Positions 1-26,032 of a stretch of DNA of 32,000 bases are shown here, one piece after another. A model generated the notes under the pieces. It saw only the letters and a program-made list of their open reading frames with translations. It ran no database searches and was not told the origin of the DNA. This DNA comes from Rariglobus sp. (GTDB lineage: Bacteria > Verrucomicrobiota > Verrucomicrobiia > Opitutales > Opitutaceae), in contig JANODO010000050.1 in assembly GCA_031412735.1 (NCBI GenBank), positions 1 through 32,000 of the forward strand, in the 5' to 3' direction. A program made the position numbers and the translations under genes. How positions within the stretch are numbered: the stretch's first letter is position 1; each line of letters begins with the position of its first letter.

Positions 1-117
1 ATCAGCCGCGAGATTGCCCGCGGTAAGTTCCCCAAGCCTGTCAGAATTGGGCGGGTCCTCCGCTTCGCCCTCTCTGATGTCGAAGCCTACGCTGCCGGTC
101 TCCATTCCTCAAAATGA
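1..117 (+). CDS. AlpA/Xis-like helix-turn-helix protein, C-terminal fragment (5' end lies left of the window)
   Basis: Frame 1 is open from the window edge and reads ISREIARGKFPKPVRIGRVLRFALSDVEAYAAGLHSSK. The TGA at 115-117 overlaps the integrase ATG (ATGA). The sequence resembles the small phage/island DNA-binding proteins that precede integrases. Confidence 0.45.
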   Translation: MSREIARGKFPKPVRIGRVLRFALSDVEAYAAGLHSSK

Positions 118-1424
118 ACGCATCGGTATTTCAGCCGATCAGAGGGGGCCGGAAAAACCGTTTCTACTCCGCAAAGATCAAGCTCCCGTCATGGCCTAAG
201 CTTCGCGTGATTTCCCTCGGGGTAACTGACAAGCGGGTCGCCGAGGAGAAGCTTCGGAAAATGGTCTTAGAATTCGAACGCGAGGCCGAGGGCATCCTTG
301 CCCCTCGCCAGATGCGCGAGGGAGTAAACAAGCCCCTTGGTGAGCATCTGGCGGCGTTTCTCGCCGATCTGACAGGGCGAGGGCGTTCGGCAAACACCCT
401 CAAGCGATACCGTAAAAGCATGACACGGCTCTTCACGCTTTGCCGCTGGTCGAAGCTCGCCGACGTCACGCCGCGCAGTTTCAGCGAGTGGCGGGGCCGC
501 TCCGATCTGGCCGCAAAATACGTCAATGACCTGCTCGGCATCCTCTCGACGTTTATGACGTGGCTGGAGCGGGAGGGCGTTATTGTTCAAAATCCGCTCA
601 AACACGTCGGCAAGGCTCGCGTCATAAAGGGGGAGGGGTATCGCCGCGCACTCTCACCGGATGAGCTGCAAAAGCTCGTAAACGCCGCCTCGCCTGAACG
701 TGCCGCCGTTTATCTCTTCATCGCCTTCACCGGCCTTCGTCGTTGCGAGATGAACGGCCTTAAGTGGGAGCATTTCGACCTCGAATCTGCCGAGCCCACC
801 GTTTCCTTGCCTGCCTCGATCACCAAGAACCGGAAGACAGCCAGGCTTCCCCTGGTCCCGCCTGCTGTGGCGGCTCTTCGCCAACTTCGGCCGGATCTGG
901 CCATGCCCTACGAGTGGGCTTTTCGTGGCAAGGTGCCTAGCCCTCGGACGCTGCGGAAAGATCTGACGAGTGCAGGAATTGCACACGTGGACGGCAAGGG
1001 GCGAGTGATTGACGTGCATGCTCTGCGCAAGACGCTCGGCACGATGCTGGCCATTCTTGGCGTCCCTCCGCGTGTGCATATGGCTCTGATGCGTCACAGC
1101 GACATGCGGCTTACGATGGACGACTATGTAACCGAGGACATGCTGCCTATGCGGGCCGCGATGCTGCGTTTGCCTCTCATAACTCTGCCGTCAAGTGATA
1201 CACAAAATGTCTTACCGGAGGCACAAAAAGACGCACTTTCGGGGGTCTTTTTAGGGCTGCAAGAGTCCTGCGCTGTCCCTGTCGGTTCAAGTCTTGCAAA
1301 TTCGCAAGACGCTGAAACAGTCGCTTTTAGACACACGAAATCCGCCTTAGACTCTCTAAGTCCGGAAAAGAAAATGGTCGGGACGGAGAGATTCGAACTC
1401 TCGACCTCTACAACCCGAATGTAG
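114..1424 (+). CDS. tyrosine-type site-specific integrase/recombinase
   Basis: 436-codon ATG ORF. The catalytic set is readable: FTGLRRCEM (Arg), HALRKTLGTML (His-x-x-Arg), LMRHSDMRLTMDDYV (His and Tyr nucleophile). An unusually long tail of about 85 aa follows the Tyr. Its last 50 nt (1375-1424) run antisense through tRNA-Pro. Confidence 0.85.
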   Translation: MNASVFQPIRGGRKNRFYSAKIKLPSWPKLRVISLGVTDKRVAEEKLRKMVLEFEREAEGILAPRQMREGVNKPLGEHLAAFLADLTGRGRSANTLKRYRKSMTRLFTLCRWSKLADVTPRSFSEWRGRSDLAAKYVNDLLGILSTFMTWLEREGVIVQNPLKHVGKARVIKGEGYRRALSPDELQKLVNAASPERAAVYLFIAFTGLRRCEMNGLKWEHFDLESAEPTVSLPASITKNRKTARLPLVPPAVAALRQLRPDLAMPYEWAFRGKVPSPRTLRKDLTSAGIAHVDGKGRVIDVHALRKTLGTMLAILGVPPRVHMALMRHSDMRLTMDDYVTEDMLPMRAAMLRLPLITLPSSDTQNVLPEAQKDALSGVFLGLQESCAVPVGSSLANSQDAETVAFRHTKSALDSLSPEKKMVGTERFELSTSTTRM

Positions 1425-1451
1425 CGCTCTACCAGGCTAAGCTACGTCCCG
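1375..1451 (-). tRNA. tRNA-Pro (anticodon CGG)
   Basis: 77-nt cloverleaf folded by hand on the minus strand. Acceptor CGGGACG/CGTCCCG; D-arm GCTT-AGCCTGGTA-GAGC; anticodon arm CTACA-TTCGGGT-TGTAG; T-arm GAGAG-TTCGAAT-CTCTC; discriminator A and an encoded CCA. Confidence 0.9.
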
Positions 1452-3012: not shown

Positions 3013-3633
3013 TTAGGCGAGAGTGTCGGGGACACTATTCCAGTTGGCGAAGAGCGGGAGGTCTCTCCCGCTAATCGGGAGCGGGGTCAGCGTAGAATCA
3101 GCAACAGCGGACTGGATCAGGGATTGCAGGCGCAGGTGGCGTTTCGCGAGGGCGATCTGGACGGCGGGAAGCCAGGAACGTGGGTAAAGCGCGACCAACG
3201 GTTCGTAACCCTGCGGACCCTGCGGGACGACGCCGGTGCGACCGTTGCCAGCGTCGATGAGGGTTTGCAGGAAGCCGGAGGTGAGGTGGGGCAAATCGAC
3301 GGCGATGATGAGCACCCACGGGTGGCGGGCGGCGGCGAGGATGGCGGCGACTCCGGCCAGCGGGCCGGAGTCGGGCACGGAGTCGATCACCACGCGCGCT
3401 TCGGGAATCGCCAGGGCGTAATGGACGTCGGGGCGGCCGGAGATGACTAGGTCGTGGATGCCGAGGCTGAGCAGGAGGGCGGCTTGGCGGGCGATGAGAG
3501 GCGGGCCGTCGGGCGCGGGGAATGGCAGGAAGGCTTTATCCCGACCCATGCGCGAGGAGCGCCCGCCGGCGAGGATGGCGCCGGTGAGGGGGAATTTATG
3601 GGGGAAGTCGGATGGGTTGCCCACGGAACACAC
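3013..3633 (-). CDS. mobA: molybdenum cofactor guanylyltransferase MobA
   Basis: GAILAGGRSSRMGRDKAFLPF, VIDSVPDSGPLAGVAAIL and LIIAVDLPHLTSGFL match MobA motifs. It is the last gene of the Moco operon. The GTG start at 3633 directly follows the tail of hairpin element A. The first six codons are a solo repeat arm, so the start is uncertain by a few codons. Confidence 0.82.
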   Translation of the reverse strand: MCSVGNPSDFPHKFPLTGAILAGGRSSRMGRDKAFLPFPAPDGPPLIARQAALLLSLGIHDLVISGRPDVHYALAIPEARVVIDSVPDSGPLAGVAAILAAARHPWVLIIAVDLPHLTSGFLQTLIDAGNGRTGVVPQGPQGYEPLVALYPRSWLPAVQIALAKRHLRLQSLIQSAVADSTLTPLPISGRDLPLFANWNSVPDTLA

Positions 3634-3640
3634 GGAGAGG
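3619..3640. repeat. solo arm fragment of a CACGGAA-flavour hairpin element, embedded in the mobA 5' end
   Basis: The minus strand reads CCGTGTGTTCCGTGGGCAA. This is identical to the last 19 nt of the distal arm plus tail start of the element at 4825-5036. No partner arm is present. Confidence 0.7.
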
Positions 3641-3650
3641 CTGAGTTATT

Positions 3651-3735
3651 GCCCACGAAACACACGAAATGACACGAAAGAATCAGAGCAAAGGAGCAGG
3701 GTTTCTTTTCGTGTCATTTCGTGTGTTTCGTGGGC
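3651..3735. repeat. compound hairpin element A (CACGAAA flavour)
   Basis: GCCCACGAAACACACGAAATGACACGAAA (3651-3679) is perfectly complementary (29/29) to 3707-3735, with a 27-nt loop. Each arm is three tandem (A/G)CACGAAA-like units. It sits between the MOSC stop and the mobA start. Confidence 0.95.
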
Positions 3736-4217
3736 TAAACGGTTTGGGGGTTTTCGAGGCGGAGTAGGCCGTCGGTGAGAATTTTGGCTCGGAGGCCGCC
3801 GCGACCTTTGAGGGCGTCTTCGGCTCCGGGGGCGAAGGCCTCGTTCATCCAGTGGCACGGAGAGCACTCGGCGGTGCCGAGGAAGCGGATGTTTTGGAGG
3901 GTGAATTCGACGCCGATCAGCGTGTTCAAATCGACCCCGCGCGTGATGACGTTGCGCCGAAAGGCGGACGGTGCGGGGTGCGCGCCGCTGAGCGGCAAAA
4001 ACGTGGCGCAGAGTTCATCGTAGATCTCACCAGAAAAAAACGTGATCTGCCCCTTGTAGTCGGCTTTGTAATCAAAAAAGCGGTCGCCGCGGATGCCGCG
4101 TCCGGCAACGCATTCGACTTCGGGCACCGGGACGACCGGGTGTTCGCCGGCGGGCTGGTTGTGGTGGCCGAAGTAATTATGGCCGGGAGAAACGTAGAGG
4201 TGTTCGATGCGGATCAT
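3735..4217 (-). CDS. MOSC domain-containing protein
   Basis: MIRIEHLYVSPGHNYFGHH, VECVAGRGIRGDRFF, RRNVITRGVDLNTLIGVEFTLQNIRFLGTAECSPCHWM and LRAKILTDG match the MOSC barrel with its conserved Cys. ATG 4217 is chosen; the 16 extra codons of the track ORF are translated hairpin arm. Confidence 0.8.
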   Translation of the reverse strand: MIRIEHLYVSPGHNYFGHHNQPAGEHPVVPVPEVECVAGRGIRGDRFFDYKADYKGQITFFSGEIYDELCATFLPLSGAHPAPSAFRRNVITRGVDLNTLIGVEFTLQNIRFLGTAECSPCHWMNEAFAPGAEDALKGRGGLRAKILTDGLLRLENPQTV

Positions 4218-4240
4218 CGGAAATAGGAGGCGGAGTTGTT

Positions 4241-4324
4241 GCCCACTAAAGACACGAAAGGACACGAAAGAATGGGAGCGAAAACCACGGTTTCGTTTCG
4301 TGTCATTTCGTGTGTTTCGTGGGC
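4241..4324. repeat. compound hairpin element B (CACGAAA flavour)
   Basis: The left arm GCCCACTAAAGACACGAAAGGACACGAAAG pairs 26/30 with 4295-4324. The right arm is identical to that of element A over about 27 nt. It sits between the mog stop and the MOSC start. Confidence 0.9.
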
Positions 4325-4809
4325 TAACCGCCTTGGAGGTGTTTGAGGCATTCGCGGATCGCGGGGATGAGCGGCGCTAAACACTCGCCGATGGCGCGGG
4401 GGTTGCCGGGGAGGTTGATGATGAGCGTGCGGCCGCGCGTGCCGGCGGTGGCGCGGGACAGGATCGCGGTGGGGACTTTGGCGAAACTCACGGCGCGCAT
4501 GGCTTCGCCGAAGCCGGGAAGTTCGCGTTCGAGCACGTCGCGCGTGGCTTCAGGCGTGACGTCGCGGGGCGCGGGACCGGTGCCGCCGGTGGTGACGATG
4601 AGATCGCAGTGTTCGTCGTCGCAGAGGGAGCGAAGGGTGGACGTGATGGTGGCGCGGTCGTCGGGGATGAGGCGGGTGACGAAGGTGGGCGCGGGTGTGA
4701 AGGCGGTGAGCAGGATGCGCTCGATCTCAGGGCCGGAGAGGTCGGCGTAAACGCCGGCGGAGGCGCGGTCGCTGAGGGTGACGCGGGCGATGAGGAGGGG
4801 AGCGGTCAT
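4324..4809 (-). CDS. mog: molybdopterin adenylyltransferase MogA (MoaB/Mog family)
   Basis: LIVTTGGTGPAPRDVTPEAT and LPGFGEAMRAVSFAKVPTAILSRATAGTRGRTLIINLPGNPRAI match the Mog signature blocks. ATG 4809 is chosen because the track ORF extension is hairpin arm. Confidence 0.85.
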   Translation of the reverse strand: MTAPLLIARVTLSDRASAGVYADLSGPEIERILLTAFTPAPTFVTRLIPDDRATITSTLRSLCDDEHCDLIVTTGGTGPAPRDVTPEATRDVLERELPGFGEAMRAVSFAKVPTAILSRATAGTRGRTLIINLPGNPRAIGECLAPLIPAIRECLKHLQGG

Positions 4810-4824
4810 GGAGACGGAGTTATT

Positions 4825-5036
4825 GCCCACGGAACACACGGAATACACGGAAGAAGTCGGAAACGGAGAAAACGGAGGTCGGGGTTTTAAACACGAATCA
4901 CTAAATACACGAAAATGAAAGCCTCCGATCTAGGTCCGACTTTCGTGTATTTCGTGTGTTTCGTGGTTAACCGGATTGGGAAATCGGTCTCTGTTTTTTG
5001 ATCGATTCTTCCGTGTGATCCGTGTGTTCCGTGGGC
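4825..5036. repeat. compound hairpin element C-outer (CACGGAA flavour) carrying a second element in its loop
   Basis: GCCCACGGAACACACGGAATACACGGAAGA (4825-4854) pairs 28/30 with 5007-5036. It sits between the moaC stop and the mog start. Confidence 0.9.
4887..4970. repeat. compound hairpin element C-inner (CACGAAA flavour, degenerate left arm), nested in the loop of C-outer
   Basis: The right arm TTTCGTGTATTTCGTGTGTTTCGTGGTTAA (4941-4970) is well preserved. The left arm TTAAACACGAATCACTAAATACACGAAAA has substitutions and a 1-nt deletion. Confidence 0.75.
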
Positions 5037-5497
5037 TAAACGGATTGGGGATTGGTTTTGGTTTTGGTGGTCACGCGGACTTCGCTGATGATCATTTTTT
5101 TGTCTACGGCCTTCATCATGTCGTAGAGCGTGAGCGCGGCGACGGCGACGGCGGTGAGGGCTTCCATTTCGACCCCCGTTTTGCCGGTAAGCCGGGCTTC
5201 GGCGGTGATGAGGATGCGGTCGCGTTTCACGGTGAAATCCACGGAAACTTTATCGAGGGCGAGCGGGTGGCAGAGGGGGATGAGGTCAGCGGTTTTTTTG
5301 GCGGCCATGATGCCGGCGAGGCGGGCGCAGGCGAGGACGTCACCTTTGGGGAGCGCCTGTTTTTTGAGGAGACGGAGGGTCGCGGGTGCGCAGCGGAGTT
5401 CGCCGGTGGCGACGGCGCGGCGGAGTTGCGGGGGCTTGGCGCCGACATCGACCATCGTGGCGGTGCCGGCGGCGTCGAGGTGGGAGAAGGTTTTCAT
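5036..5497 (-). CDS. moaC: cyclic pyranopterin monophosphate synthase MoaC
   Basis: [51 protein letters not shown] and [30 protein letters not shown] match MoaC. ATG 5497 overlaps the stop of the decayed toxin gene (ATGA). The track start at 5533 is GTG. Confidence 0.9.
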
Positions 5498-5798
5498 GAT
5501 GAGCGGCGTTTTCGGAGTTGGCGCTTGATCCACGCGGGGTCGCGGCGGCCATCAAGCACGCGTCAGATTTGAATTTCGATGGCGGTGACCCGGTAGTAGA
5601 TCACGTAAGGGAACCGTTTGGAGAGCGCCCGGTAAAAACCGGCGGATTTTCGATGATAACCGGCGTAGAGTCGCAAGGATTCAATATCGGAGAACAACTG
5701 TCCAAAAAATACGCGCCGACATTGGGAGAGCTGCGTTCGTAAAAACTGAAGCCGTCGAGCAGATCGGCTTCGGCCAGGCTGAGAAGCCGTAGATTCAC
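5494..5798 (-). pseudogene. RelE/ParE-family toxin, disrupted by one frameshift and one in-frame TGA
   Basis: From GTG 5798 the gene reads VNLRLLSLAEADLLDGFSFYERSSPNVGAYFLDS. The reading frame then slips near 5694-5698. The +2 frame continues FSDIESLRLYAGYHRKSAGFYRALSKRFPYVIYYRVTAIEIQI, then TGA (5563-5565), then [16 protein letters not shown]. The GTG overlaps the antitoxin stop (GTGA). Confidence 0.65.
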
Positions 5799-6028
5799 GC
5801 CTTTTTTTGGCTTCGGCGTTGAAGGCGGATTTTGGCGTCTGACCAATCCGAGAATGTGGCTTTGCCCGTGCGGACTGCGGCCTCGGTTTCTTGGAGGACA
5901 GCGGCGTGCCACGAAGGCGGTGAGTAAGCTGCTTCGTCGCGGGTTAGATCAACCCAGAGCAGTTCCATGGTCCGCAGTTTCTCGCGCCGTGACAGGTGTT
6001 CGATGGAAAGCGTCGTTGTCATCGGCAT
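5795..6028 (-). CDS. putative addiction-module antitoxin (CHP02574-like)
   Basis: 77 aa: MPMTTTLSIEHLSRREKLRTMELLWVDLTRDEAAYSPPSWHAAVLQETEAAVRTGKATFSDWSDAKIRLQRR. The L-S-x-x-E-(K/R)-L ... LW ... W ... G pattern is typical of this antitoxin family. ATG 6028 is chosen; the track start at 6091 is TTG. Confidence 0.65.
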   Translation of the reverse strand: MPMTTTLSIEHLSRREKLRTMELLWVDLTRDEAAYSPPSWHAAVLQETEAAVRTGKATFSDWSDAKIRLQRRSQKKA

Positions 6029-6068
6029 AGTTTTCTTGTCTGGGAGGGGAAGGCAACAGCCGGTTTTT

Positions 6069-7259
6069 TTAGCGGCAGGGGAGGACTTCAACTTCCGCAG
6101 TCAGCGGTGTGGTGGGGACGCGTAGGAGTCCTTCGGTTTTGGCGAGGAGCGTGAGGTCGGAGGAGTCGCGCCACGGGAGCGGCAGGACCCGGCGGGTGGC
6201 ACCCTCGTCTGACCAGAGGCAAGGCCACCAGGTTTCGCGCGGGTCGGGGCGCAACTCGGCTTCGGGGGCGAGCGTAGCGTGCACGAGCGCGGTGGGTTCG
6301 GTGCCGGCGAGGCGGGCGAGCACGCGTTTCACGAAGAGATGGAAACAGACGAAGTGAGAGAGCGGGTTGCCCGGCAGGCCGAAGGCGAGGCGTCCGTCGC
6401 GCGAGGCGGCGATGAAGGGCTTGCCGGGGCGGCTGGCGACCTTGTCGCAGTGAATTTTGAAGCCCTGGGCGGCGAGCAACGCGCCGGTATGGTCGTGGTC
6501 GCCGACGCTGGCTCCGCCGCTGATGAGGATAATGTCGGCGTCGGTGGAGAGCGCGGCGGCGAGTGCATCGGCGGTGGCGGCACGGGAGTCGGAGACGCGT
6601 TGTTGCCAAATCAGTTCGGCGTGGGCGTCGGCGAGAAGCGCGGCGATGAGCGTGGAGTTGGAATCGCGGATCTGGCCGAAGGCGGGTTGGGCTTCGGGGG
6701 GGACGAGTTCGCCGCCGGTGACGAGGTGGGCGACGCGGGCGCGGCGGGACACGAGCGGCGTGGTTGCGCCGAGGGAGGCGAGGAGGGCGAGTGCGCCAGC
6801 GTTGAGTGGCTGGCCGGTAGCGAGGAGTTGGGCACCGGCGCAGGCTTGAGAGCCGCGGCGGCGGATGTGTTTGGTCGAGGGCGGCTGGAGGAGTTCGAGT
6901 TGGTTTGCGGACGAGCCGACGAGGCGGGTGTCCTCCTGCATGATGAGGGCGGCGGCGGGGTCGGAGGGAAGTGCGCTGCCGGTGAGGATGCGGAGGGCGG
7001 TGCCGACGGGGGGGGCGGCGGCGGGCGCGGGAGAGCCGGGGGCGATGGTCCCGGCGAGGGTGACGGTGCCGGGGAGTTGGGTGGAGTGGACGAGGTAGCC
7101 GTCGATGGCGGAACGGTCGAAGGGCGGCTGGTCTTCGGGCGCGAGGATGGGCTCGCGTAGAATGAGGTTGTGCGTCGAGGCGAGCGGGACGCGCTCGGCA
7201 GGGAGGGGCGACGGAACGAGGGCGTCGAGGCGTATCCAGAGATCGGCGACGGAGATCAT
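6069..7259 (-). CDS. moeA: molybdopterin molybdotransferase MoeA
   Basis: PPFDRSAIDGY, ILISGGASVGDHDH, ASRPGKPF and GLPGNPLSHFVCFHLFV match MoeA. ATG 7259 (MISVADLW) is preferred over TTG 7280; it overlaps the GxxExxY stop as TGATG. Confidence 0.9.
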   Translation of the reverse strand: MISVADLWIRLDALVPSPLPAERVPLASTHNLILREPILAPEDQPPFDRSAIDGYLVHSTQLPGTVTLAGTIAPGSPAPAAAPPVGTALRILTGSALPSDPAAALIMQEDTRLVGSSANQLELLQPPSTKHIRRRGSQACAGAQLLATGQPLNAGALALLASLGATTPLVSRRARVAHLVTGGELVPPEAQPAFGQIRDSNSTLIAALLADAHAELIWQQRVSDSRAATADALAAALSTDADIILISGGASVGDHDHTGALLAAQGFKIHCDKVASRPGKPFIAASRDGRLAFGLPGNPLSHFVCFHLFVKRVLARLAGTEPTALVHATLAPEAELRPDPRETWWPCLWSDEGATRRVLPLPWRDSSDLTLLAKTEGLLRVPTTPLTAEVEVLPCR

Positions 7260-7759
7260 CAAGCGCGGAAAGAAATCCAAGCTACCGAGCTGGCGACTAG
7301 CAGGGTGACAAGCGAGAGCAGTCCTACGCCGGATGATCGTTCGTCTTGAAAAAGTGATCCGCAGGCCACGCGTTTTATTCCCTCTTTCATGACGGGCACG
7401 TTGAAGTTGAGCAGGAGCCCGAGAGACCTACGTTTCAGTTTAAGATAAGTAAGGAGCTGTGCTTGGTGGATCGGCTGGAACGAGTGGATCGATTTCAGTT
7501 CGATGATGAGTTCGTCCTCGACGATAAAATCCAGGCGATAGTCGCAATCGAGCGACACTCCCTTATAAGTAAGCGGGATGTCGCATTGGCGTTCATAACG
7601 CAGACCAGCGTGGGTTAATTCGTATGCGAGTGCCTCTTCATAGGCTGATTCGAGCAAGCCGGGGCCGAGTTCACGGTGCACCTCAATGCACAAGCCGATC
7701 ACACGATGGGAGAGTTGGTTGATGCGTTCTTTCTTAGCTTCGTTTTCTGGCGTCAGCAT
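7259..7759 (-). CDS. GxxExxY protein (PD-(D/E)XK nuclease-like fold) with a hydrophobic C-terminal extension of about 34 aa
   Basis: LSHRVIGLCIEVHRELGPGLLESAYEEALAYEL carries the GxxExxY signature, and YRLDFIVEDELIIELKSI carries a D...ExK core. GLLLNFN and IKRV mark the usual family C-terminus, after which the ORF runs on to 7259. It is visibly AT-richer than its neighbours. ATG 7759 is chosen because the track extension is hairpin arm. Confidence 0.85.
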   Translation of the reverse strand: MLTPENEAKKERINQLSHRVIGLCIEVHRELGPGLLESAYEEALAYELTHAGLRYERQCDIPLTYKGVSLDCDYRLDFIVEDELIIELKSIHSFQPIHQAQLLTYLKLKRRSLGLLLNFNVPVMKEGIKRVACGSLFQDERSSGVGLLSLVTLLVASSVAWISFRA

Positions 7760-7805
7760 AGAGGTGGAGATGTAGGGTGTGTTGGAGTGAAGGCGGGCGG
7801 AGTTT

Positions 7806-7906
7806 TTCACCACAAAGGCACGAAGACACAAAGGTCGGATAGAGAAATCAGCAGGTGAGATTGTGCACTTTATGAGAACTTTGTGTCACTGTGTCTTTGT
7901 GGTTAA
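7806..7906. repeat. compound hairpin element D (CACAAAG flavour)
   Basis: TTCACCACAAAGGCACGAAGACACAAAGGT (7806-7835) pairs 24/30 with 7877-7906 (AACTTTGTGTCACTGTGTCTTTGTGGTTAA). It sits between the moaE stop and the GxxExxY start. Confidence 0.85.
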
Positions 7907-7925
7907 AATCAGCGATGCATTGAGC

Positions 7926-8318
7926 TCATTGCAACGTGTCGGTTTTCCAGATGGGCACGTCTTGTTTGAGGCGGTCCATGAAGGCGGCGAGGAGGGCGAA
8001 GGCGGGGGCGCGGTGCTTGGCTTGGACGGCGATGTGAATGGCGGCCTCGCCCACAGGGATGATGCCGATGCGATGTTGGACGAAGACGGAGTGGCAGGGG
8101 TGCGCGGCGGCGAGTTCGGTGAGTAGGCGGTGCATCACGGTTTCGGCCATCGGTTGGTAGGCTTCGTAAACGAGGGCGGAGATGGGCTGGTCGTTTTCCG
8201 AGCCGCGCACCAGTCCGGTGAACGTCGCGAGGGCACCGATGTCGGGGTTGGCACGCGAAGCGGGCGGGACGATGACGGCGGAGGAAATGAGGATCTCAAT
8301 GTGCACGGCGGATTTCAA
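7926..8318 (-). CDS. moaE: molybdopterin synthase catalytic subunit MoaE
   Basis: ATFTGLVRG, YEAYQPMAE, HRIGIIPVGEAAIHIAVQAKHRAPAF and MDRLKQDVPIWK match MoaE. The start is TTG 8318 or GTG 8306. Confidence 0.88.
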   Translation of the reverse strand: MKSAVHIEILISSAVIVPPASRANPDIGALATFTGLVRGSENDQPISALVYEAYQPMAETVMHRLLTELAAAHPCHSVFVQHRIGIIPVGEAAIHIAVQAKHRAPAFALLAAFMDRLKQDVPIWKTDTLQ

Positions 8319-8358
8319 CCAGGTGGCTCGCGAAGGATACGAAGGGAGCGAAGGTAAA

Positions 8359-8598
8359 TCAGCCTCCCGAGACGGGAGGGATGACGGCGATTTCGTCGTT
8401 GGGTGAAAGGGTGGCGTCGGCGGTGAGGAAGTCGTTGTCGCGGGCGAGGCGGGAAGATGCGCGCAACGAGGCCAGGTCTGGGTGGCGTTGGATAAGTTGG
8501 TCCCAGAAGGCGGCAGTCGAGAGCGGTGTGGAAACCGGGATTTCCTCGGTCGATAGGCCGGTGATGCGGCGGGCGTGGGCGAAGTAGAGAACGGTCAT
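8359..8598 (-). CDS. moaD: molybdopterin synthase sulfur carrier subunit MoaD
   Basis: 79-aa ThiS/MoaD-size protein ending in PPVSGG (C-terminal Gly-Gly), immediately upstream of moaE. Confidence 0.85.
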   Translation of the reverse strand: MTVLYFAHARRITGLSTEEIPVSTPLSTAAFWDQLIQRHPDLASLRASSRLARDNDFLTADATLSPNDEIAVIPPVSGG

Positions 8599-8801
8599 GT
8601 AGTTGCCTGGCTGGGTGTTTGTGGGCGGGACCGTGTGAAGCAGTGGGTGACGTGGATTGGTTTATCCCAGCGGATGAGCGGTGATCAGTCGCGGGCGTTC
8701 ATCGTCCGGGCGGACTTCCCAGACCGTGCGGATGCAGGGATTGCTTTTGTCGGGAGTCGGTAGGTTGCAATCTAGAGTGTATTTGGTGCCGAAGCCTGTG
8801 T

Positions 8802-11800
8802 TCACGGAGACCTCTCCACTTGATTGGCCAGCAGGGTGGCGACTACCGGATTACCGGTCGGTGCCGCCAACTCCACGGCGTAGCCTTTGCCTCCTTCGTA
8901 AATACTTACGACTGCGCCAATGGTGCCGACTGCAAAATCGTGCCCCTCTTCGACGACGGGCACTAGTAAACGCACGCAATCGTGCTCGGCAATGGCGGGC
9001 GCGATGGAGAGTTGGTAGTGGGAATCCAGCTCGGTGTGCAGGGATAGGATCGCGGCGATGCGCCGGACGTGGTGGGTGAACTGCTGCGCCTCGTCACTCG
9101 TAAGGGCGCGACCCAGCAAATCGACCTCGCGGTAGCTGAGCCACTTCTTGAGCACCTGATAGCCGCCGAGGGTGTAACTCCAGACCGCCACGGGAACGTC
9201 TTTCCACCGGGTGGTGGCGTTGAGGTGGATGTCGATAAAGCCGTCGCCGCGCGTGCCGGTGCTTGTCTGGCCGGGGCCGGGCATGGTGACGCCGTTTTGA
9301 CCGGCGTAGCCCCAACGTGCTTTGAGCGAGAGGTCGGGGGTCTTCTCACCCGGTTTGAGGGCGAGTTCACCGAGGCCTTTGAGGTCGACGCGGACTTTGA
9401 GGCTGGTGACGCCTTCGACGGGCGTTTCAGGATCGAGTAGTGCGGCGATTTTGCGGCCAAGGCCGGCTCCTGAGCGGAGAACTTGGGCGGTCTTCGGCAG
9501 GGGCACGCGGGGCCAATCCTGTCTGAGAGCCCCGGCATTTTCTTCCCGATAAAGCGGTGCGTGTAGCACGGCGACGATGTGGAAGAACAGGTCTTCTGGT
9601 CCGGCCTCCAATTCCGCCAGATAGTCCTTCGCGAAATCCGTCAGGTTGGGCTGCGGGCCGCTAGGCCCCGATGATTCGAAGAGATCGGACTGCGGTTCTT
9701 TGGAAGCTGCGTCGTCAGCCGCCGCGTGTAGATAGAGCGGGAAGAAATTGGAAAGCCCGTTGGCGAAGTTATCAGCGAGCAGAGTTGTCACGGTGCCACG
9801 ATCCCAGCCGTCTCGGCTTTCTGACTTCCTTGCCTCAATCCAGAAGTTTCCAGAAAAGACGTGTTTCACATACTCGGGACGTTTCTCGTCGAGGAGTTTT
9901 GTGTGTGGATTCCAATATAGCCAACGGGCATCGAAGGGGCGATAAAGGTAGCGGAAGAAGCGACCACTTTCGATGCCGTGATTTTGCAAATCTCCCCTAA
10001 CCTTCTTCGCATCAAAGCGGCCTGAGTCGTCCTTCAGTCCTGCTAGCCTGCCATCAAGCGATGAGAACGATACCTTTGGGTTGAAGTAGCGTTGCATACG
10101 TTCTTCCAACGCGCCGCGAGCAACGTCTATCAGCGAATCATCGCGACTAGTTTTCACTCCAGGAAAAGACGTGCCTAACAATTCGGGGAGCAGTTGCCAA
10201 TTTTCGTAGTCTTCACGAACGCCTATTGGGATGAACGGCAGCCCGAATTTGAGCGCGGGTTTTAGAGCCTGAGACTGCTTTGGGATTTCCAAAGAGACTT
10301 CCAACTCTGCTCGCTTCAATTTTCCCCACCAATGCCGAAAGTTAAGATCCGCGTGAGGATTGTAGGCAGTCGCATCGGTATCCGCCGCACGCGGCTTGCC
10401 CTTCGGTCTGCGCTCCATGAGCGCGATAGCCGTTCCCACCTGAATGCCTTCGCGATTTTTCTCGGTCGAGAAGACGCTTGGGTCGGGCTGACCATCGGGT
10501 GTCTTTTTGCCGGTCTTGTATTTATCGCCGTTGAGGCAGTCGATGGTGATGGAGTCGAAGACCTCCATGAAGCGCTCGCGCATGCCGGTGTGGGACAGGC
10601 CGTCGAGCCAGGAGTAATTGCTAATGTAGCAGATGATGCCCTTGGCATCGGGACGAGGCCGGCCGGGTTTGTCGTCATCGGACTTCGGCACGCCTTCGGC
10701 GATGCGGCGCTCGGCCATCCGGAAAAAGCGGACGTAAAGATCGTTGAGTCCCTGACCCTGCGGAGCGGCAACCGTCTTCACGTGGCGGTAGGATTCGGAG
10801 AGATTGCGTTCCTCTTCTACGGCCAGGCCGGCGTAGCCGTCGTAGGGAGGGTTGCCGAGGACGACGATGATCTCGGACTTCTGCTTCACGTGGTCGGCGG
10901 CGTCGCGTTCGTCTGAAAACTCGGAGAATAGGACTTGGTCTTTCGGGTGTTTGACGGGCACCCAGCCGGTGAGGGCGTTGGTTAGGAATACCCCGGCGCG
11001 CTCGTCCTTACCGTGGTCGAGCTCGGCGCCCCAGCGGGTGAGCATGAGGTCGATCTGGAGATGGGAGACGACGTAGGGCGCGGGCAGGAGCTCAAAGCCG
11101 TAGAGGCGATGTTTGGCGACTTCGCGGATTTTCAGCGCAGCTTGGGCTTCGCCGTAGCCCTCGACGAGGCGGCGGCGGATGAGTTTGAGCGTCTCGACGA
11201 GGTAGGCACCGGTGCCGCAGCAAGGATCGAGGACGACGACGGAGGGATCGGCGAGGCCATCGGGTAGGTTGAAGTTTTCGCGCAGGGCGCGGTCCACGCT
11301 GCCGACCATGTAGCGGACGATCTCGGGCGGGGTATACCAGACGCCGAAATCCTTGCGCAGCTCGGGGTCGAACTCGGCGAGGAAGGGCTCGTAGAAGTAT
11401 TGCACGGCCTCGCCCATGTCGTAGCGAGCGAAGAAACTGTTGCGCTCCACGCGGGCCAGGCACTCCTCGGTCCAGTCGAGCACCTCTTCAAGGTTGAGCG
11501 CACGGATTTTTTTAGGATCGCTGGCGAGCTGGATGAAGAGCGTGCGCAGGATAGGAAGGCCGAGATGCTGGGCGGAGAGTCGCCACTGGAAACGCTCGCC
11601 GGGTTTGGGGTGGGCTTCGTGCCAGAGCACCCAAGCGGAGAAGATGCCGTAGAAGAGCGTCTGGATGAGCGTGGACTGGAAGAAATGGACGCCCTTCTCG
11701 CCCTCGAAGTGAACGCCAAGAGCGTCGGACAGGGCCTTTTTCACCGGTTCAAGCGTGCCCATCGGGGCCACCTCCACGCGGGCGCGAGCTTCACGGGCAT

Positions 11801-12386
11801 AGCTGGCGAGGTAAGTGGCGAGGTCTTGAGGTGTGGCGATACGTGCGGTGGAGAGCAGGGCGCGGCGGAGGAATTGCCACAGGCGCTCATTCTCGGGGTG
11901 CTGGGGATTCTGGCGGAGGGTGTGAACCTTATCCCAGAATTCGTTTTCGCTGGCGGCGACGATGTAGCGTTCGCCTTGGACCGCCTTGCCGTCTTTCCAT
12001 GACCAGAGCGAGAAGGCGCGGTAGTTGGTAAGGAGGATCTGGCCGTAGTGCTCCAGGTAATTGCGGACCTGCGGGGTCGATTCGAAGGAGGAGAGATCCT
12101 TCTCGATGGGTTTGATTTCGACGACGCCGCGCTCGGGTTTGAGTTGGCCGAAAAGGGAGGCGCGGTCGTCGCCGTATTTCTTGAGTTCTTTGGCGGAGAA
12201 GAGGCCGCCGTCGGGAATACCGGCTCCGCTGTTCGCCGGATGGATTACGGCTGTGATCTTGGGTTTGAGGGTTTCTCCGACCGCGTTGAGCAGTTTGGAG
12301 AGTGCGGGATAGCCGCTGGTCTCCGGCACGCCGATGCCTGAGATGCTATGAAGTTCTACAAGGTAGTCGGCGACGGGGGATGACAT
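8802..12386 (-). CDS. single-chain Type IIG-like N6-adenine DNA methyltransferase (MmeI/YeeA/Type ISP-C-terminal family), possible N-terminal PD-ExK nuclease, C-terminal DUF4926-like domain
   Basis: 1194 aa with an ATG start. YFYEPFLAEFDPELRKDFGVWYTPPEIVRYMV is the block typical of MmeI/PglX/ISP methylases. VVLDPCCGTGAYL is SAM motif I and VVLGNPPYDGYAG is catalytic NPPY motif IV. WSYTLGGYQVLKKWLSYRE matches the conserved C-terminal domain of Type ISP/YeeA enzymes. No helicase or Mrr domain is apparent. The last ~65 aa (VRLLVPVVEEGHDFAVGTIGAVVSIYEGGKGYAVELAAPTGNPVVATLLANQV) look like DUF4926. Confidence 0.85.
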   Translation of the reverse strand: MSSPVADYLVELHSISGIGVPETSGYPALSKLLNAVGETLKPKITAVIHPANSGAGIPDGGLFSAKELKKYGDDRASLFGQLKPERGVVEIKPIEKDLSSFESTPQVRNYLEHYGQILLTNYRAFSLWSWKDGKAVQGERYIVAASENEFWDKVHTLRQNPQHPENERLWQFLRRALLSTARIATPQDLATYLASYAREARARVEVAPMGTLEPVKKALSDALGVHFEGEKGVHFFQSTLIQTLFYGIFSAWVLWHEAHPKPGERFQWRLSAQHLGLPILRTLFIQLASDPKKIRALNLEEVLDWTEECLARVERNSFFARYDMGEAVQYFYEPFLAEFDPELRKDFGVWYTPPEIVRYMVGSVDRALRENFNLPDGLADPSVVVLDPCCGTGAYLVETLKLIRRRLVEGYGEAQAALKIREVAKHRLYGFELLPAPYVVSHLQIDLMLTRWGAELDHGKDERAGVFLTNALTGWVPVKHPKDQVLFSEFSDERDAADHVKQKSEIIVVLGNPPYDGYAGLAVEEERNLSESYRHVKTVAAPQGQGLNDLYVRFFRMAERRIAEGVPKSDDDKPGRPRPDAKGIICYISNYSWLDGLSHTGMRERFMEVFDSITIDCLNGDKYKTGKKTPDGQPDPSVFSTEKNREGIQVGTAIALMERRPKGKPRAADTDATAYNPHADLNFRHWWGKLKRAELEVSLEIPKQSQALKPALKFGLPFIPIGVREDYENWQLLPELLGTSFPGVKTSRDDSLIDVARGALEERMQRYFNPKVSFSSLDGRLAGLKDDSGRFDAKKVRGDLQNHGIESGRFFRYLYRPFDARWLYWNPHTKLLDEKRPEYVKHVFSGNFWIEARKSESRDGWDRGTVTTLLADNFANGLSNFFPLYLHAAADDAASKEPQSDLFESSGPSGPQPNLTDFAKDYLAELEAGPEDLFFHIVAVLHAPLYREENAGALRQDWPRVPLPKTAQVLRSGAGLGRKIAALLDPETPVEGVTSLKVRVDLKGLGELALKPGEKTPDLSLKARWGYAGQNGVTMPGPGQTSTGTRGDGFIDIHLNATTRWKDVPVAVWSYTLGGYQVLKKWLSYREVDLLGRALTSDEAQQFTHHVRRIAAILSLHTELDSHYQLSIAPAIAEHDCVRLLVPVVEEGHDFAVGTIGAVVSIYEGGKGYAVELAAPTGNPVVATLLANQVERSP

Positions 12387-12431
12387 GGGTGATAAAACGG
12401 GTGAGCTGGGGCGCGGTCGGCACCATTTACG

Positions 12432-12698
12432 TTATGCCGCGATCATGTTGACGGCGTCGTTGTAAACCCAGCCCTCGTTGCCGGTGTTGTAGAGCGGGTC
12501 GATGAAGATGCAGTTCACCTGGCCGGCGTAGAGCGGGAGAAGGGTTTTGAGGGCGTGGAGATTGTCGCCCTCGACGAGAAGATTGCCGGAACCGGGGTCG
12601 CCGCAGCCGAGTTCGGGCACGTCGCGGAGCAGCCGGTAGGGGACTTCGCGGTGGTGGTTAGCGACGGCGTCTTTGCCGATCCAGGAAAGCGTGGGCAT
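12432..12698 (-). pseudogene. N-terminal remnant (88 aa) of a Type III Mod-like DNA methyltransferase
   Basis: LSWIGKDAV ... LLVEGDNLHALKTLLPLYAGQVNCIFIDPLYNTGNEGWVYND matches the N-terminal LxWxGK ... GDNLxxLK ... IYIDPPYNTG block of Type III Mod enzymes. The catalytic DPPY reads DPLY, and the ORF stops right after this block, 45 nt before the large methyltransferase. Confidence 0.7.
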
Positions 12699-12824
12699 GG
12701 TTCGTTTTGATCCTGCGAGCCGATGAAGGAACTCTGCAACTACGGGATACGTCCATTTTAGGTCGCCGAGGTGAGCGCGGCCTAGTCCTGCTCCAGCATC
12801 TGGTGTTTTTGGGTTAGGGGATTG

Positions 12825-12945
12825 TTAACCATAAAGACACGGAGGCACAAAGGACTCACAAAGACCGGAAAACTGACGATTACAGCAGAGGGCAATCGAG
12901 GCTGAACTTTGTGAGGCCTTTGTGCCTTGGTGTCTTTGTGGTGAA
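12825..12945. repeat. compound hairpin element E (CACAAAG flavour, 39-nt arms), inverted relative to D
   Basis: TTAACCATAAAGACACGGAGGCACAAAGGACTCACAAAG (12825-12863) pairs 34/39 with 12907-12945. The asymmetric ends are TTAACC on the left and GGTGAA on the right, swapped relative to element D. Confidence 0.88.
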
Positions 12946-13067: not shown

Positions 13068-14039
13068 TTAGCCGCCGATGGCGGTCATGGGGCGGTCGGG
13101 GATGTAGTCGGATTGGAAGGTGTGGTCCTTGGGCTTGTTGGCGATGGCTTCGGTGAGCAACGCGTCGAGGTGGGCGTGGCCGGCGCGGACCGGGGCGAGC
13201 AGGTCAATCTCGCCGTGGCGGCCCAAACAGGGGCGGAGCTTGCCGTCGGACGTGAGCCGGAGCTTGTTGCAGGTGCCGCAAAAATCGGGAGTGGTGAGCG
13301 CGCCGATGAAGCCGACGAGGGCACCGTTTTGCGCGCGGGCGTAGCGGGCGGGGCCGTGGCCGGTGCGGTAGTCAGGGAGGGTTTCGAGGGGGCCCAGTTC
13401 GGATTCGATGCGGGCGCGGGCGCCTTCGCAGGAGAGGAAATTTTCGGAGCTGAGGACATCGGTGCGCGTGAGCGGCATCAGCTCGATAAAGCGCACCGGG
13501 GTGCGGTGCTCGGCGGCGAAACGCACGAGGGGCACGAGCTGGTCTTCGTTGACGCCGCGCATAAGCACCACGTTGAGCTTCACGACTTCGAAATCGGCGG
13601 CGAGGGCGGCATGGATTCCGCCGAGGGCGTCGGCGAGGCGGCCGCCGGTCACGCGGCGGTAGGCGTCGGCGTCGAGTGCGTCGAGGGAGACGTTGACGGA
13701 GGTGACGCCGGCGTTGCTGAGGTCGCGGGCGACGGCGGCCAGGCGCGTGCCGTTGGTGGAAAGACCGAGCGAGGCGGTGGTGGGCAACGCGGCGATGCCG
13801 GCGGCGATCGAGACGAGGTCGGGTCGGAGCAGCGGTTCGCCGCCGGTGAGGCGGAATTTGCGGAAGCCGAGCGAAGACGCGGCCGTGGCGATGCGGATGA
13901 GTTCGTCGGCGGTGAGGTGGTCGGGGCGCTGCGCCCAGCCTTTGTAGCCTTCGGGCATGCAGTAGAGGCAGCGCTCGTTGCACCGGTCGGTGACGGAGAT
14001 ACGCAGGTAATCGATGTGGCGTCCGAAGGGATCGGTCAT
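13068..14039 (-). CDS. moaA: GTP 3',8-cyclase MoaA (radical SAM)
   Basis: RISVTDRCNERCLYCMPEG carries the CxxxCxxC radical-SAM cluster. FRLTGGEPLLRPD and the C-terminal cluster CGTCNKLRLTSDGKLRPCL are also present. Confidence 0.95.
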   Translation of the reverse strand: MTDPFGRHIDYLRISVTDRCNERCLYCMPEGYKGWAQRPDHLTADELIRIATAASSLGFRKFRLTGGEPLLRPDLVSIAAGIAALPTTASLGLSTNGTRLAAVARDLSNAGVTSVNVSLDALDADAYRRVTGGRLADALGGIHAALAADFEVVKLNVVLMRGVNEDQLVPLVRFAAEHRTPVRFIELMPLTRTDVLSSENFLSCEGARARIESELGPLETLPDYRTGHGPARYARAQNGALVGFIGALTTPDFCGTCNKLRLTSDGKLRPCLGRHGEIDLLAPVRAGHAHLDALLTEAIANKPKDHTFQSDYIPDRPMTAIGG

Positions 14040-25794: not shown

Positions 25795-25915
25795 AAAAGT
25801 CAGGGTGGGGATCGCGGAGCGCACCTGCAAGCAGGCGGCCTACGGATTGGGAGACATACGCACGGCGCAGGCTTTGTAATACCAGTTATAGCATGAAATG
25901 AGACTTTCGTCTGGT

Positions 25916-25973
25916 GTAGGCCCGACCGGTGGTCGGGCGTCTCCTAGAAACCCCGACCACCGGTCGGGGCTAC
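25916..25973. repeat. REPIN-like inverted doublet of a GTAG-headed REP (CCCGACCGGTGGTCGGG core)
   Basis: GTAGGCCCGACCGGTGGTCGGG (25916-25937) faces CCCCGACCACCGGTCGGGGCTAC (25951-25973). Each unit is itself a hairpin, CCCGACC-GGT-GGTCGGG. Confidence 0.85.
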
Positions 25974-26032
25974 ATCGGGGCATGCTAAAGTCCGGCGCGA
26001 GTGCGGGTTGAGTGCGGGAACGCCTGCGTCGT

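Follow-up and report, generated by a model that had tools for sequence, protein, structure and literature searches.

Phased-heptamer hairpins at the gene junctions of a Rariglobus molybdenum cofactor operon as probable miniatures of GxxExxY-gene cassettes

The closest described counterparts of the elements treated here are the repetitive extragenic palindromes (REPs), short palindromic repeats at gene ends and in operons that combine into inverted doublets (REPINs) forming long hairpins. These occur as many gene-less copies together with a small gene flanked by the same repeats, the REP-associated tyrosine transposase (RAYT) gene, of which there are typically few per genome; the system is old and widespread. 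Miniature inverted-repeat transposable elements (MITEs) such as Correia/NEMIS of Neisseria and ERIC/IRU of enterobacteria are 80-200 bp long, carry terminal inverted repeats and no open reading frame (ORF), lie between genes, and are co-transcribed as hairpins, those of the Correia elements being cut by RNase III. The intervening sequences of 23S rRNA (PF05635) place a long stem, which RNase III removes, around an ORF of ~120 amino acids (aa). The attC sites of integrons are imperfect hairpins after ORFs, conserved mainly at their ends and recognized as folded DNA, and the stoperators and start-associated sequences of mycobacteriophages are short asymmetric repeats set in one orientation in many small intergenic gaps. 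Here, we analyze a family of hairpin elements that shows some likeness to each of these, found in a 32,000-nucleotide stretch of DNA from Rariglobus sp. (contig JANODO010000050.1; the whole stretch is called the window below), where its copies lie at junctions of a minus-strand operon for molybdenum cofactor (Moco) synthesis. Arms of the same build enclose genes of the GxxExxY family in many bacteria, and on balance we hold it probable that the hairpins are gene-less, MITE-like miniatures of a selfish GxxExxY-nuclease cassette.

Hairpins built of phased heptamers

A preliminary description of the window had reported six hairpins and a solo arm in this operon, and an inverted-repeat search, the sequence itself, and predicted folds bear out all seven. 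They are listed here by position, labeled E1 to E6, together with one further candidate.

3619-3640, minus strand: solo arm of the CACGGAA flavor, GCCCACGGAACACACGGAGAGG; located by the pattern search at 3622-3637
3651-3735, minus strand: E1, MOSC-mobA junction, CACGAAA flavor; arms 3651-3679 and 3707-3735, 29/29 stem, 27-nucleotide (nt) loop
4241-4324, minus strand: E2, moaB-MOSC junction, CACGAAA flavor; arms 4241-4269 and 4296-4324, 90% complementary
4825-5036, minus strand: E3 (outer), moaC-moaB junction, CACGGAA flavor; 31-nt arms 4825-4855 and 5006-5036 (94%), with E4 in the loop
4887-4970, minus strand: E4, CACGAAA flavor, nested within the E3 loop in the same orientation
7804-7908, minus strand: E5, junction of moaE and the GxxExxY gene, CACAAAG flavor; arms 7804-7844 and 7868-7908, 78% over 41 nt
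8330-8357 (approximate), minus strand: candidate decayed solo arm of R type, CCTTCGCTCCCTTCGTATCCTTCGCG on the minus strand, moaD-moaE junction; low certainty
12825-12945, minus strand: E6, between moaA and the restriction-modification block, CACAAAG flavor; four units per arm, arms 12825-12863 and 12907-12945, 34/39 (87%)

The arms are tandem units set inside inverted repeats, as the preliminary description had it: each consists of three to four phased heptamers with a period of 8-10, of general form CRCNRAR and, in the window, CAC(G/A)(A/G)A(A/G). It also proved correct that both arms of every window copy have one flavor, the three flavors being CACGAAA, CACGGAA, and CACAAAG. With at most one mismatch, the pattern CACGRAANNCACGRAA matches 12 times in the window against 0.03 expected from shuffles, and a general arm detector (period 8-11, at least three units C[AG]C.[AG]A[AGT]) picks out 11 arms where shuffles yield 0.01, by which we reject chance as the source of the array. 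Ten of these are the reported arms. The eleventh, at 11112-11137, lies within the restriction-enzyme ORF and looks like a chance match. Since the same detector finds no convincing copy outside 3.6-13 kb, the claim that the rest of the window is free of the elements stands.

At 84-212 bp, with inverted arms of 29-41 nt and loops without an ORF, the elements have the size and the terminal repeats of MITEs. They also carry asymmetric conserved flanks. Read on the minus strand, these are CCnCAAnCCGTTTAG at the 5' end and, at the 3' end, GGGCAAYAACTCCGYCTCC, after which comes the next ATG. The flanks of E1, which has near-identical copies at the loci L121 and L206 of relatives, reach ~3643 and ~3750. 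The nested copy E4 brings flanks of its own, CCAATCCGGTTAAC... and ...TTTAAAACCCCGACCTCC (minus strand), of the same kind as those of the other copies, and L046 holds a nested pair of hairpins resembling E4 in E3. Both nested pairs count for the insertion of one element into another. The solo arm at 3619-3640 is probably the leftover of a second hairpin in tandem with E1; the same remnant (..GTGTGTTCCGTGGGCAACCCATCC) comes after a hairpin in L209. As to the faint candidate at 8330-8357, the moaD-moaE junction of two relatives holds recognizable solo arms (L206 9411-9436; L124 8397-8421).

Distribution of the arms and their link to the GxxExxY gene

A scan of one genome per species (185,579 species) with CACGRAA N2-3 CACGRAA N2-3 CACGRAA recovered at least 120 genome loci, against ~9 expected by chance on our own estimate, and at least 120 loci with the same triple unit, mostly solo arms, come from viral contigs. 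Among the matches listed, the arms spread over more than ten phyla, with representatives in Verrucomicrobia, Planctomycetes, Kiritimatiellia, Lentisphaeria, Methylococcaceae, Gallionella, Rhodocyclus, Acidobacteria, Gemmatimonadota, Desulfobacterales, Spirochaetia, Chloroflexi, Nitrospirota, Cloacimonadota, and others, and an inverted partner arm (at least 72%), not demanded by the search, accompanies 78 of the 163 arm matches. Because the architecture occurs in many phyla and in viral contigs, it is no peculiarity of the Moco operon or of this organism. Of the junction specificity proposed in the preliminary description, what remains is that the window copies do lie at cistron junctions of the minus-strand operon; the elements are special neither to the Moco operon nor to this genome. 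Our statements on intergenic position rest on annotated relatives only. In-house crude gene calling was too noisy and was not used: 26 of 68 hairpins fell "inside" ORFs, and the orientation bias of solo arms was opposite in bacterial and viral loci.

Two kinds of array in these matches may be recorded separately. Three viral contigs of ~68% G+C (L265, L275, L244) carry five to six solo arms each, all in one orientation and in short gaps between ORFs, within the context GGAGGAG(G/T)TGCC-CACGGAACACACGGAAGACACGGAA-GCCGGAG. L070 (4980-5120 and 7240-7610) has tandem modules of ~115 nt in one orientation, each made up of a C/T-rich tract, a CACGGAA-type solo arm, and a CGCGAAT-type solo arm, and lacking an inverted partner.

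The lengths of the loops point to two forms of the element. In 143 pairs they are bimodal, either below 150 nt or 350-450 nt, and among the matches listed the GxxExxY gene is the sole ORF family that recurs in the long loops (L048, L052, L084). The ORF of L052 takes up the whole loop, with an ATG that shares bases with the last heptamer. We also ran the comparison in reverse, starting from 80 GxxExxY genes taken from metagenomes, of which 74 had usable flanks. An arm-gene-arm arrangement was present in 48, a complete hairpin stood alongside the gene in three, and one arm was detectable in 19; four had none under the strict rule, and two of these four have variant units. Arm density adjoining the GxxExxY gene is 5.5/kb, against 0.5/kb elsewhere in the same loci. 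The flavors found at these genes are CACAGAG, CGCAGAG, CGCCGAG, CACGGAG, CACGAAG, CGCAAAG, and CACAAAG, and their outer ends read TTCAC-C or TTAAC-C. The outer ends of E5, TTTTCACCACAAAG ... CTTTGTGGTTAAAA (plus strand), are of the TTCAC/TTAAC type usual for GxxExxY cassette ends, and the end types of both 7804-7908 and 12825-12945 match those of the cassettes.

The placement of whole cassettes resembles that of the window hairpins. In L188, a perfect 36/36 inverted repeat encloses a GxxExxY gene exactly between the stop and the start of two transhydrogenase alpha-subunit halves, which from our own reading of the ORF translations appear to be pntAA and pntAB. Opitutaceae TAV5 (L333) and L150 show a hairpin-gene-hairpin order within operons, and the cassette of L334 likewise lies within an operon.

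Gene and arm also vary together in one respect. Protein identity gave no signal for CAC against CGC flavors (0.569 vs 0.563). A signal for units ending in A against those ending in G was at first confounded by the choice of loci and was later backed by three genes chosen independently, picked solely by similarity to the L052 protein: all three have GTCCACGAAA...TTTCGTGGAC arms, and in the other GxxExxY subfamily A-ending flavors occur in one of 46 (hypergeometric p ~2e-4 against 3/3 for the L052-like genes). Since the L052-like genes share GTCCACGAAA arms, gene and arms evolve as one unit. By their flavors, the CACGAAA and CACGGAA hairpins of the window on one side and its CACAAAG hairpins on the other would belong to different cassette lineages, at least two in all. 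The preliminary description made no link to the GxxExxY gene, and the link emerges here from the analysis of loci.

Other cargo in the loops is limited to single cases, a DUF4926-like ORF (L046) and PRiA4_ORF3 (L055). The former is a 79-aa ORF, below the Pfam cut-off, in the 291-nt loop of a CACGAAA hairpin that is nested in outer CACGAAG arms (L046 5063-5467), and it is the only non-GxxExxY cargo linked to the window, where the restriction ORF ends in a DUF4926-like stretch. A separate observation concerns the L150 contig, which besides its GxxExxY gene bracketed by two heptamer hairpins has a PF05635 gene (1400-1756) between AT-rich inverted repeats with units like AATTAATAATT (1380-1790); a second small-gene family may thus use the gene-in-hairpin layout.

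The window contains such a gene itself, at 7259-7759 next to E5, and its protein belongs to the GxxExxY / PDDEXK_3 family (PF13366, 3e-42, 144 bits, cut-off 22; TIGR04256, 2e-43, 147 bits, cut-off 35). It keeps D77, E87, and K89, all invariant in alignment A4; in alignment A5, E87 and K89 are invariant and D77 nearly so. The AlphaFold model of the GxxExxY protein (predicted local distance difference test, pLDDT, 87) has the alpha-beta core of PD-(D/E)XK nucleases. The family is very large, with 21,504 clusters at 50% identity for PF13366, and many genomes probably hold several of its genes. Its function is listed as unknown in the one survey that includes it. In the 166-aa subfamily that includes the window gene, translation of AACCACAAAGACACAGAG... 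matches the N-terminal consensus MNHxDTEAQR, and that of CTCTGTGCCTCTGTG... the C-terminal consensus LLCASVxLWF (A5). On this match, the two terminal consensuses would be the two arms read as protein, and the first ~10 and last ~15 codons of the window gene look like decayed F and R arms read in the same way. Arms are often translated in this manner in gene calls, as false N- or C-terminal extensions (HRDTE..., ...LCASVSLW). Two-domain GxxExxY proteins of 263-295 aa with two matched stretches each also occur (P0241-P0249 and others), and represent either fusions in tandem or neighboring cassettes called as a single gene.

Taking together the observed architecture, the gene-arm link, the bimodal loops, the nesting, the presence and absence in relatives described below, and the spread to many phyla and viral contigs, we propose the following course. 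The ends of the cassette are inverted arms of three to four heptamers (CRCNRAR) at 8-10-base spacing; in the full form, they tightly enclose one small predicted PD-(D/E)XK gene (~125 aa), and in the miniature form only a short loop. Both forms occupy short gaps at gene ends, often exactly from stop to start inside operons. The nuclease may bind the phased heptamers and cut at or near the arms, as duplex, cruciform, or hairpin, thereby moving or copying the element, and the miniatures may be moved in trans or copied by recombination. In this Opitutaceae lineage, the moa operon would have seen the miniatures multiply and turn over at its junctions. Any effect of the elements on RNA would likewise be a matter of prediction.

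Turnover at the operon junctions and the weighing of alternatives

The genes of the operon and the material inserted among them are, in minus-strand order:

13068-14039, minus strand: moaA, the first gene in that order
12432-12698, minus strand: 88-aa N-terminal fragment of a Type III methylase, in the inserted defense block
8802-12386, minus strand: Type IIG/ISP restriction-methylase ORF, the last ~60 residues of which match DUF4926
8662-8805, minus strand: DUF6883 fragment, part of the inserted defense block
8359-8598, minus strand: moaD
7926-8318, minus strand: moaE
7259-7759, minus strand: GxxExxY / PDDEXK_3 gene, 166 aa
6069-7280, minus strand: moeA
5795-6028, minus strand: antitoxin-like gene (PF09720), overlapping a 103-aa partner ORF at 5601-5912, between moeA and moaC
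5036-5533, minus strand: moaC
4324-4848, minus strand: ORF of moaB, likely ATG start 4810
3735-4265, minus strand: ORF of the MOSC-domain gene, likely ATG start 4217
3013-3633, minus strand: mobA

Hairpins occupy five junctions in this order of genes, namely mobA|MOSC, MOSC|moaB, moaB|moaC, GxxExxY|moaE, and restriction block|moaA. The earlier statement that almost every junction is occupied was therefore too strong, as about 5 of about 10 junctions hold hairpins. The fit to the reading frames is close: the TAG stops of the MOSC gene (3735-3737), moaB, and moaC (at 4324 and 5036) share the last base of the right arm of the hairpin and run into the flank.

By its MoaC protein, the window falls within the Opitutaceae, close to Rariglobus. 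Four relatives were compared with it, L121, L206, L209, and L124 (Rariglobus hedericola). The operon of L124 is the same, with overlapping genes, and is free of hairpins from moaC to mobA, and the sets of hairpins in L121, L206, and L209 all differ. The moaC|moaB junction holds CACGGAA with nested CACGAAA in the window, CACGAAA in L206 and L209, CACAAAG in L121, and nothing in L124. The moaB|MOSC junction is filled in the window and in L209, whereas in L121, L206, and L124 it reads stop, two nucleotides, and ATG, a clean empty site; in this alignment (A2), E2 is an insertion relative to these three. At moaE|moeA, L121 has a CGCAAAA hairpin and no GxxExxY gene, and several junctions hold solo arms, which we take as remnants of hairpins. 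The loop of L121 (11562-11588) is the reverse complement of the loops in L206 (12182-12208) and the window (3680-3706), with identical arms and outer flanks in the same orientation, which suggests inversion between the arms or copying via a hairpin intermediate. Since the same junctions can be filled, empty, or filled with another flavor, the comparison argues for insertion, replacement, and decay rather than for a conserved regulatory site. The comparison with moa operons of relatives that the preliminary description had called for is thus easier to reconcile with insertion and turnover than with a regulatory device under conservation.

Some other differences between the window and these relatives were noted in passing. 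The defense block at 8662-12698 splits moaA from moaD and is not in L206, L121, or L124, and moeA directly abuts moaC in L206 and L121 at the place where the window has the antitoxin-like pair of 5601-6028. Near the start of the window, a phage-type integrase ORF (114-1424, plus strand) overlaps a tRNA gene (1378-1451, minus strand), followed at 1555-1628 by a strong hairpin of another kind, with 27-nt arms (96%) and the sequence AGGGAGGGACGAGCTC...; the three may mark the edge of an integrated element.

The hairpins could also be viewed as RNA devices that the host keeps in its polycistronic mRNA, serving as RNase III sites, exonuclease barriers, or translation decouplers or couplers. The elements are co-transcribed with the operon, and therefore mRNA stems of 25-40 bp are predicted. 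The strong stems foreseen for the minus-strand RNA are indeed recovered by folding: the predicted values are -57.6 kcal/mol for E1 (z -14), -55.8 kcal/mol for E6 (z -11), -97.9 kcal/mol for E3 with nested E4 (4800-5050; z -9.9), and -42.7 and -34.4 kcal/mol for the other two, with z from -5 to -14 overall. Such stability speaks for an RNA device, as do the exact stop-to-start placement and the single orientation relative to transcription of the ~10 copies in this lineage. Further in its favor, eight of nine upstream genes in this lineage stop at the element's own in-frame TAG/TAA (the events not all being independent), and in several copies the next ATG follows 0-10 nt past the 3' tail. Long stems within an operon should, on these predictions, affect mRNA processing and the translational coupling between genes. 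The hairpins do not behave as intrinsic terminators: no long hairpin was called as one, terminator-like sites number 7 in the region and 10.7 in shuffles, and the tails read GGGCAAYAACTCC.

To set the pairing of the stems against their sequence, we compared the two arms across 133 distinct elements, short-loop and loaded. At the fixed positions of the units, the arms agree in 90-100% of cases. Short-loop elements show complementarity at unit position 4 in 85% (null 64%) and in the 2-3-nt spacers in 58% (null 33%); for loaded elements, the figures are 68% (null 39%) and 54% (null 39%), and A-C mismatches in these are no rarer than G-U (27 vs 14). The arms are thus related beyond chance, the heptamers are kept more faithfully than the pairing across the family, and the heptamer sequence is constrained at least as much as the stem. 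The argument that co-varying substitutions preserve pairing, drawn in the preliminary description, is therefore valid only locally: it holds among the copies of the window, whereas across the 133 elements the heptamers are near-invariant and the spacers only about half complementary. The window copies, 3651-3735 above all, fall at the well-paired, and presumably young, end of the range.

These figures, the weak spacer complementarity and the A-C mismatches alike, sit poorly with a host-kept RNA device, as do the overlapping, hairpin-free operon of R. hedericola, the differences between close relatives at every junction, the frequency of solo arms, and the lack of a match in Rfam. At gathering thresholds, Rfam passes only a tRNA in the window; when the filters are loosened, a plant miRNA precursor scores highest, its 37.7 bits lying below the threshold of 100. 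We consider the RNA-device explanation unlikely; RNase III processing and mRNA stabilization are, going by the predicted folds, plausible as side effects of the stems.

The fidelity of the heptamers raises another explanation, in which they form arrays that a sequence-specific protein binds in duplex DNA, be it a regulator, a nucleoid or partition-like protein, or a phage "stoperator" repressor, and the potential to form a hairpin is a by-product of paired sites. The conservation of heptamers above pairing across phyla is what such arrays would show, a phasing of 9-10 bp sets the sites near one helix face, and both the five to six solo arms of single orientation in viral L265, L275, and L244 and the alternating solo arms of L070 look like arrays of this kind. 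However, no candidate regulator recurs beside the arms except GxxExxY, sites are gained and lost at the same junction between close relatives, and the arms tightly enclose one gene family, as is typical of the ends of an element. To our reading, this makes a pure binding-site array quite improbable.

Returning to the hairpins as miniatures of the GxxExxY cassette, several points weigh against this preferred reading. An alignment of filled and empty sites together with 50 cassette ends showed no consistent target-site duplication, the relatives being too diverged to fix boundaries, and neither a transposition event nor an exact boundary could be defined from the same material. In viral loci, solo arms outnumber hairpins by 209 to 29 among the matches listed, and arrays in the same orientation occur; a simple terminal-repeat model predicts neither. 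The single orientation of the ~10 lineage copies ill fits plain cut-and-paste, and the asymmetric conserved flanks, together with the use of the element's own stop in eight of nine genes, suggest recombination copying or translation-level selection rather than cut-and-paste. A PD-(D/E)XK protein of ~125 aa is no known transposase. Comparison with solved structures by fold returns Cas4 SSO0001, lambda exonuclease, Hjc resolvase, and the homing endonuclease I-Bth0305I at template modeling (TM) scores of 0.3-0.45, and by sequence T7 endonuclease I at E 0.13, so the modeled fold points weakly, and only to a generic nuclease. Finally, the gene-arm link could have arisen by genes inserting into pre-existing hairpins instead of hairpins deriving from cassettes. 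These points leave room for recombination copying, selection for insertions that preserve translation, or a separate protein-binding role of the arms.

A bolder extension of the miniature-cassette reading can be offered tentatively, and we rate it as possible rather than probable. GxxExxY proteins would here be the mobility nucleases of unrecognized cross-phylum mobile elements, whose hairpin offspring insert from stop to start in one orientation, with their own stop at the 5' foot and the next start at the 3' foot, an arrangement that would keep translation coupled after the insertion. If the link between cassette and hairpin holds, the GxxExxY family gains a testable role, as a nuclease acting on phased-heptamer ends, and there is an explanation for an unannotated class of intergenic repeat that is common in Verrucomicrobia, Planctomycetes, methanotrophs, Acidobacteria, and others.

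Comparison with described systems

The hairpins differ from each of the systems named at the outset. Unlike the known MITEs, they show no TA or other target duplication that we could find, have arms of phased heptamers, and extend over many phyla instead of one genus, and the full-length partner with the same kind of ends encodes a predicted nuclease and not a DDE transposase. Compared with the 23S rRNA intervening sequences, they lie in mRNA operons and not in rRNA helices, have other arm sequences, and are tied to a PD-(D/E)XK protein in place of a four-helix bundle. The solo arms of L265, L275, and L244 resemble stoperators; the bacterial copies, in contrast, are mostly inverted pairs, and no repressor was identified.

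The likeness to attC deserves an explanation of its own, in which an integron integrase would treat the hairpins as attC recombination sites and the junctions of the operon as boundaries of cassettes. In its favor, hairpins follow the ORFs, some ends (TTAAC...GTTAA) look like RYYYAAC/GTTRRRY, and the taxa overlap those with chromosomal integrons. Against this, the window ends are GCCCAC/GTGGGC and TT(C/A)ACC/GGT(G/T)AA and do not form the attC core-site consensus, and the genes belong to a fixed, conserved biosynthetic operon with the same gene order as in hairpin-free relatives. The array has neither an integron integrase nor attI next to it, the sole integrase ORF (114-1424) being the one that overlaps the tRNA gene, more than 2 kb from the first hairpin and with a sigma-factor gene between them. 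With core sites and integrase context absent, we reject the attC explanation as very improbable.

The comparison with REPs is the closest. REPs are defined as imperfect palindromes of 20-40 bp with an unpaired GTAG or CGTC tag at one end (PMC3733652), and the survey that gives this definition covers other repeat families. The window arms are direct runs of heptamers ending GCC/AAC/CAC-CAC... without a GTAG or CGTC tag, and so fall outside the definition. The gene they flank is likewise different, encoding a PF13366 PD-(D/E)XK GxxExxY protein and not an IS200-like HUH tyrosine transposase, and we noticed no RAYT gene in the window, of which part of the ORFs were scanned against Pfam. A separate repeat family in the same window does have the REP form, a GTAG-tagged REP-like palindrome at 25915-25974 (TGTAGGCCCGACCGGTGGTCGGG / CCCGACCACCGGTCGGGGCTACA), and palindromes of this kind are reported as abundant in Opitutus terrae (PMC3733652).

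In Rfam and the searchable literature, we found no description of the heptamer repeats, in agreement with the first impression that they belong to no named element family. If the miniature-cassette reading is right, they would stand next to REP-RAYT as a second case of a small enzyme gene co-evolving with thousands of short palindromes. Short palindromes accompanied by a small enzyme gene are a known kind of system; arms of phased heptamers, a PD-(D/E)XK partner, a range across phyla, and a position from stop to start are, apparently, features not previously known for it.

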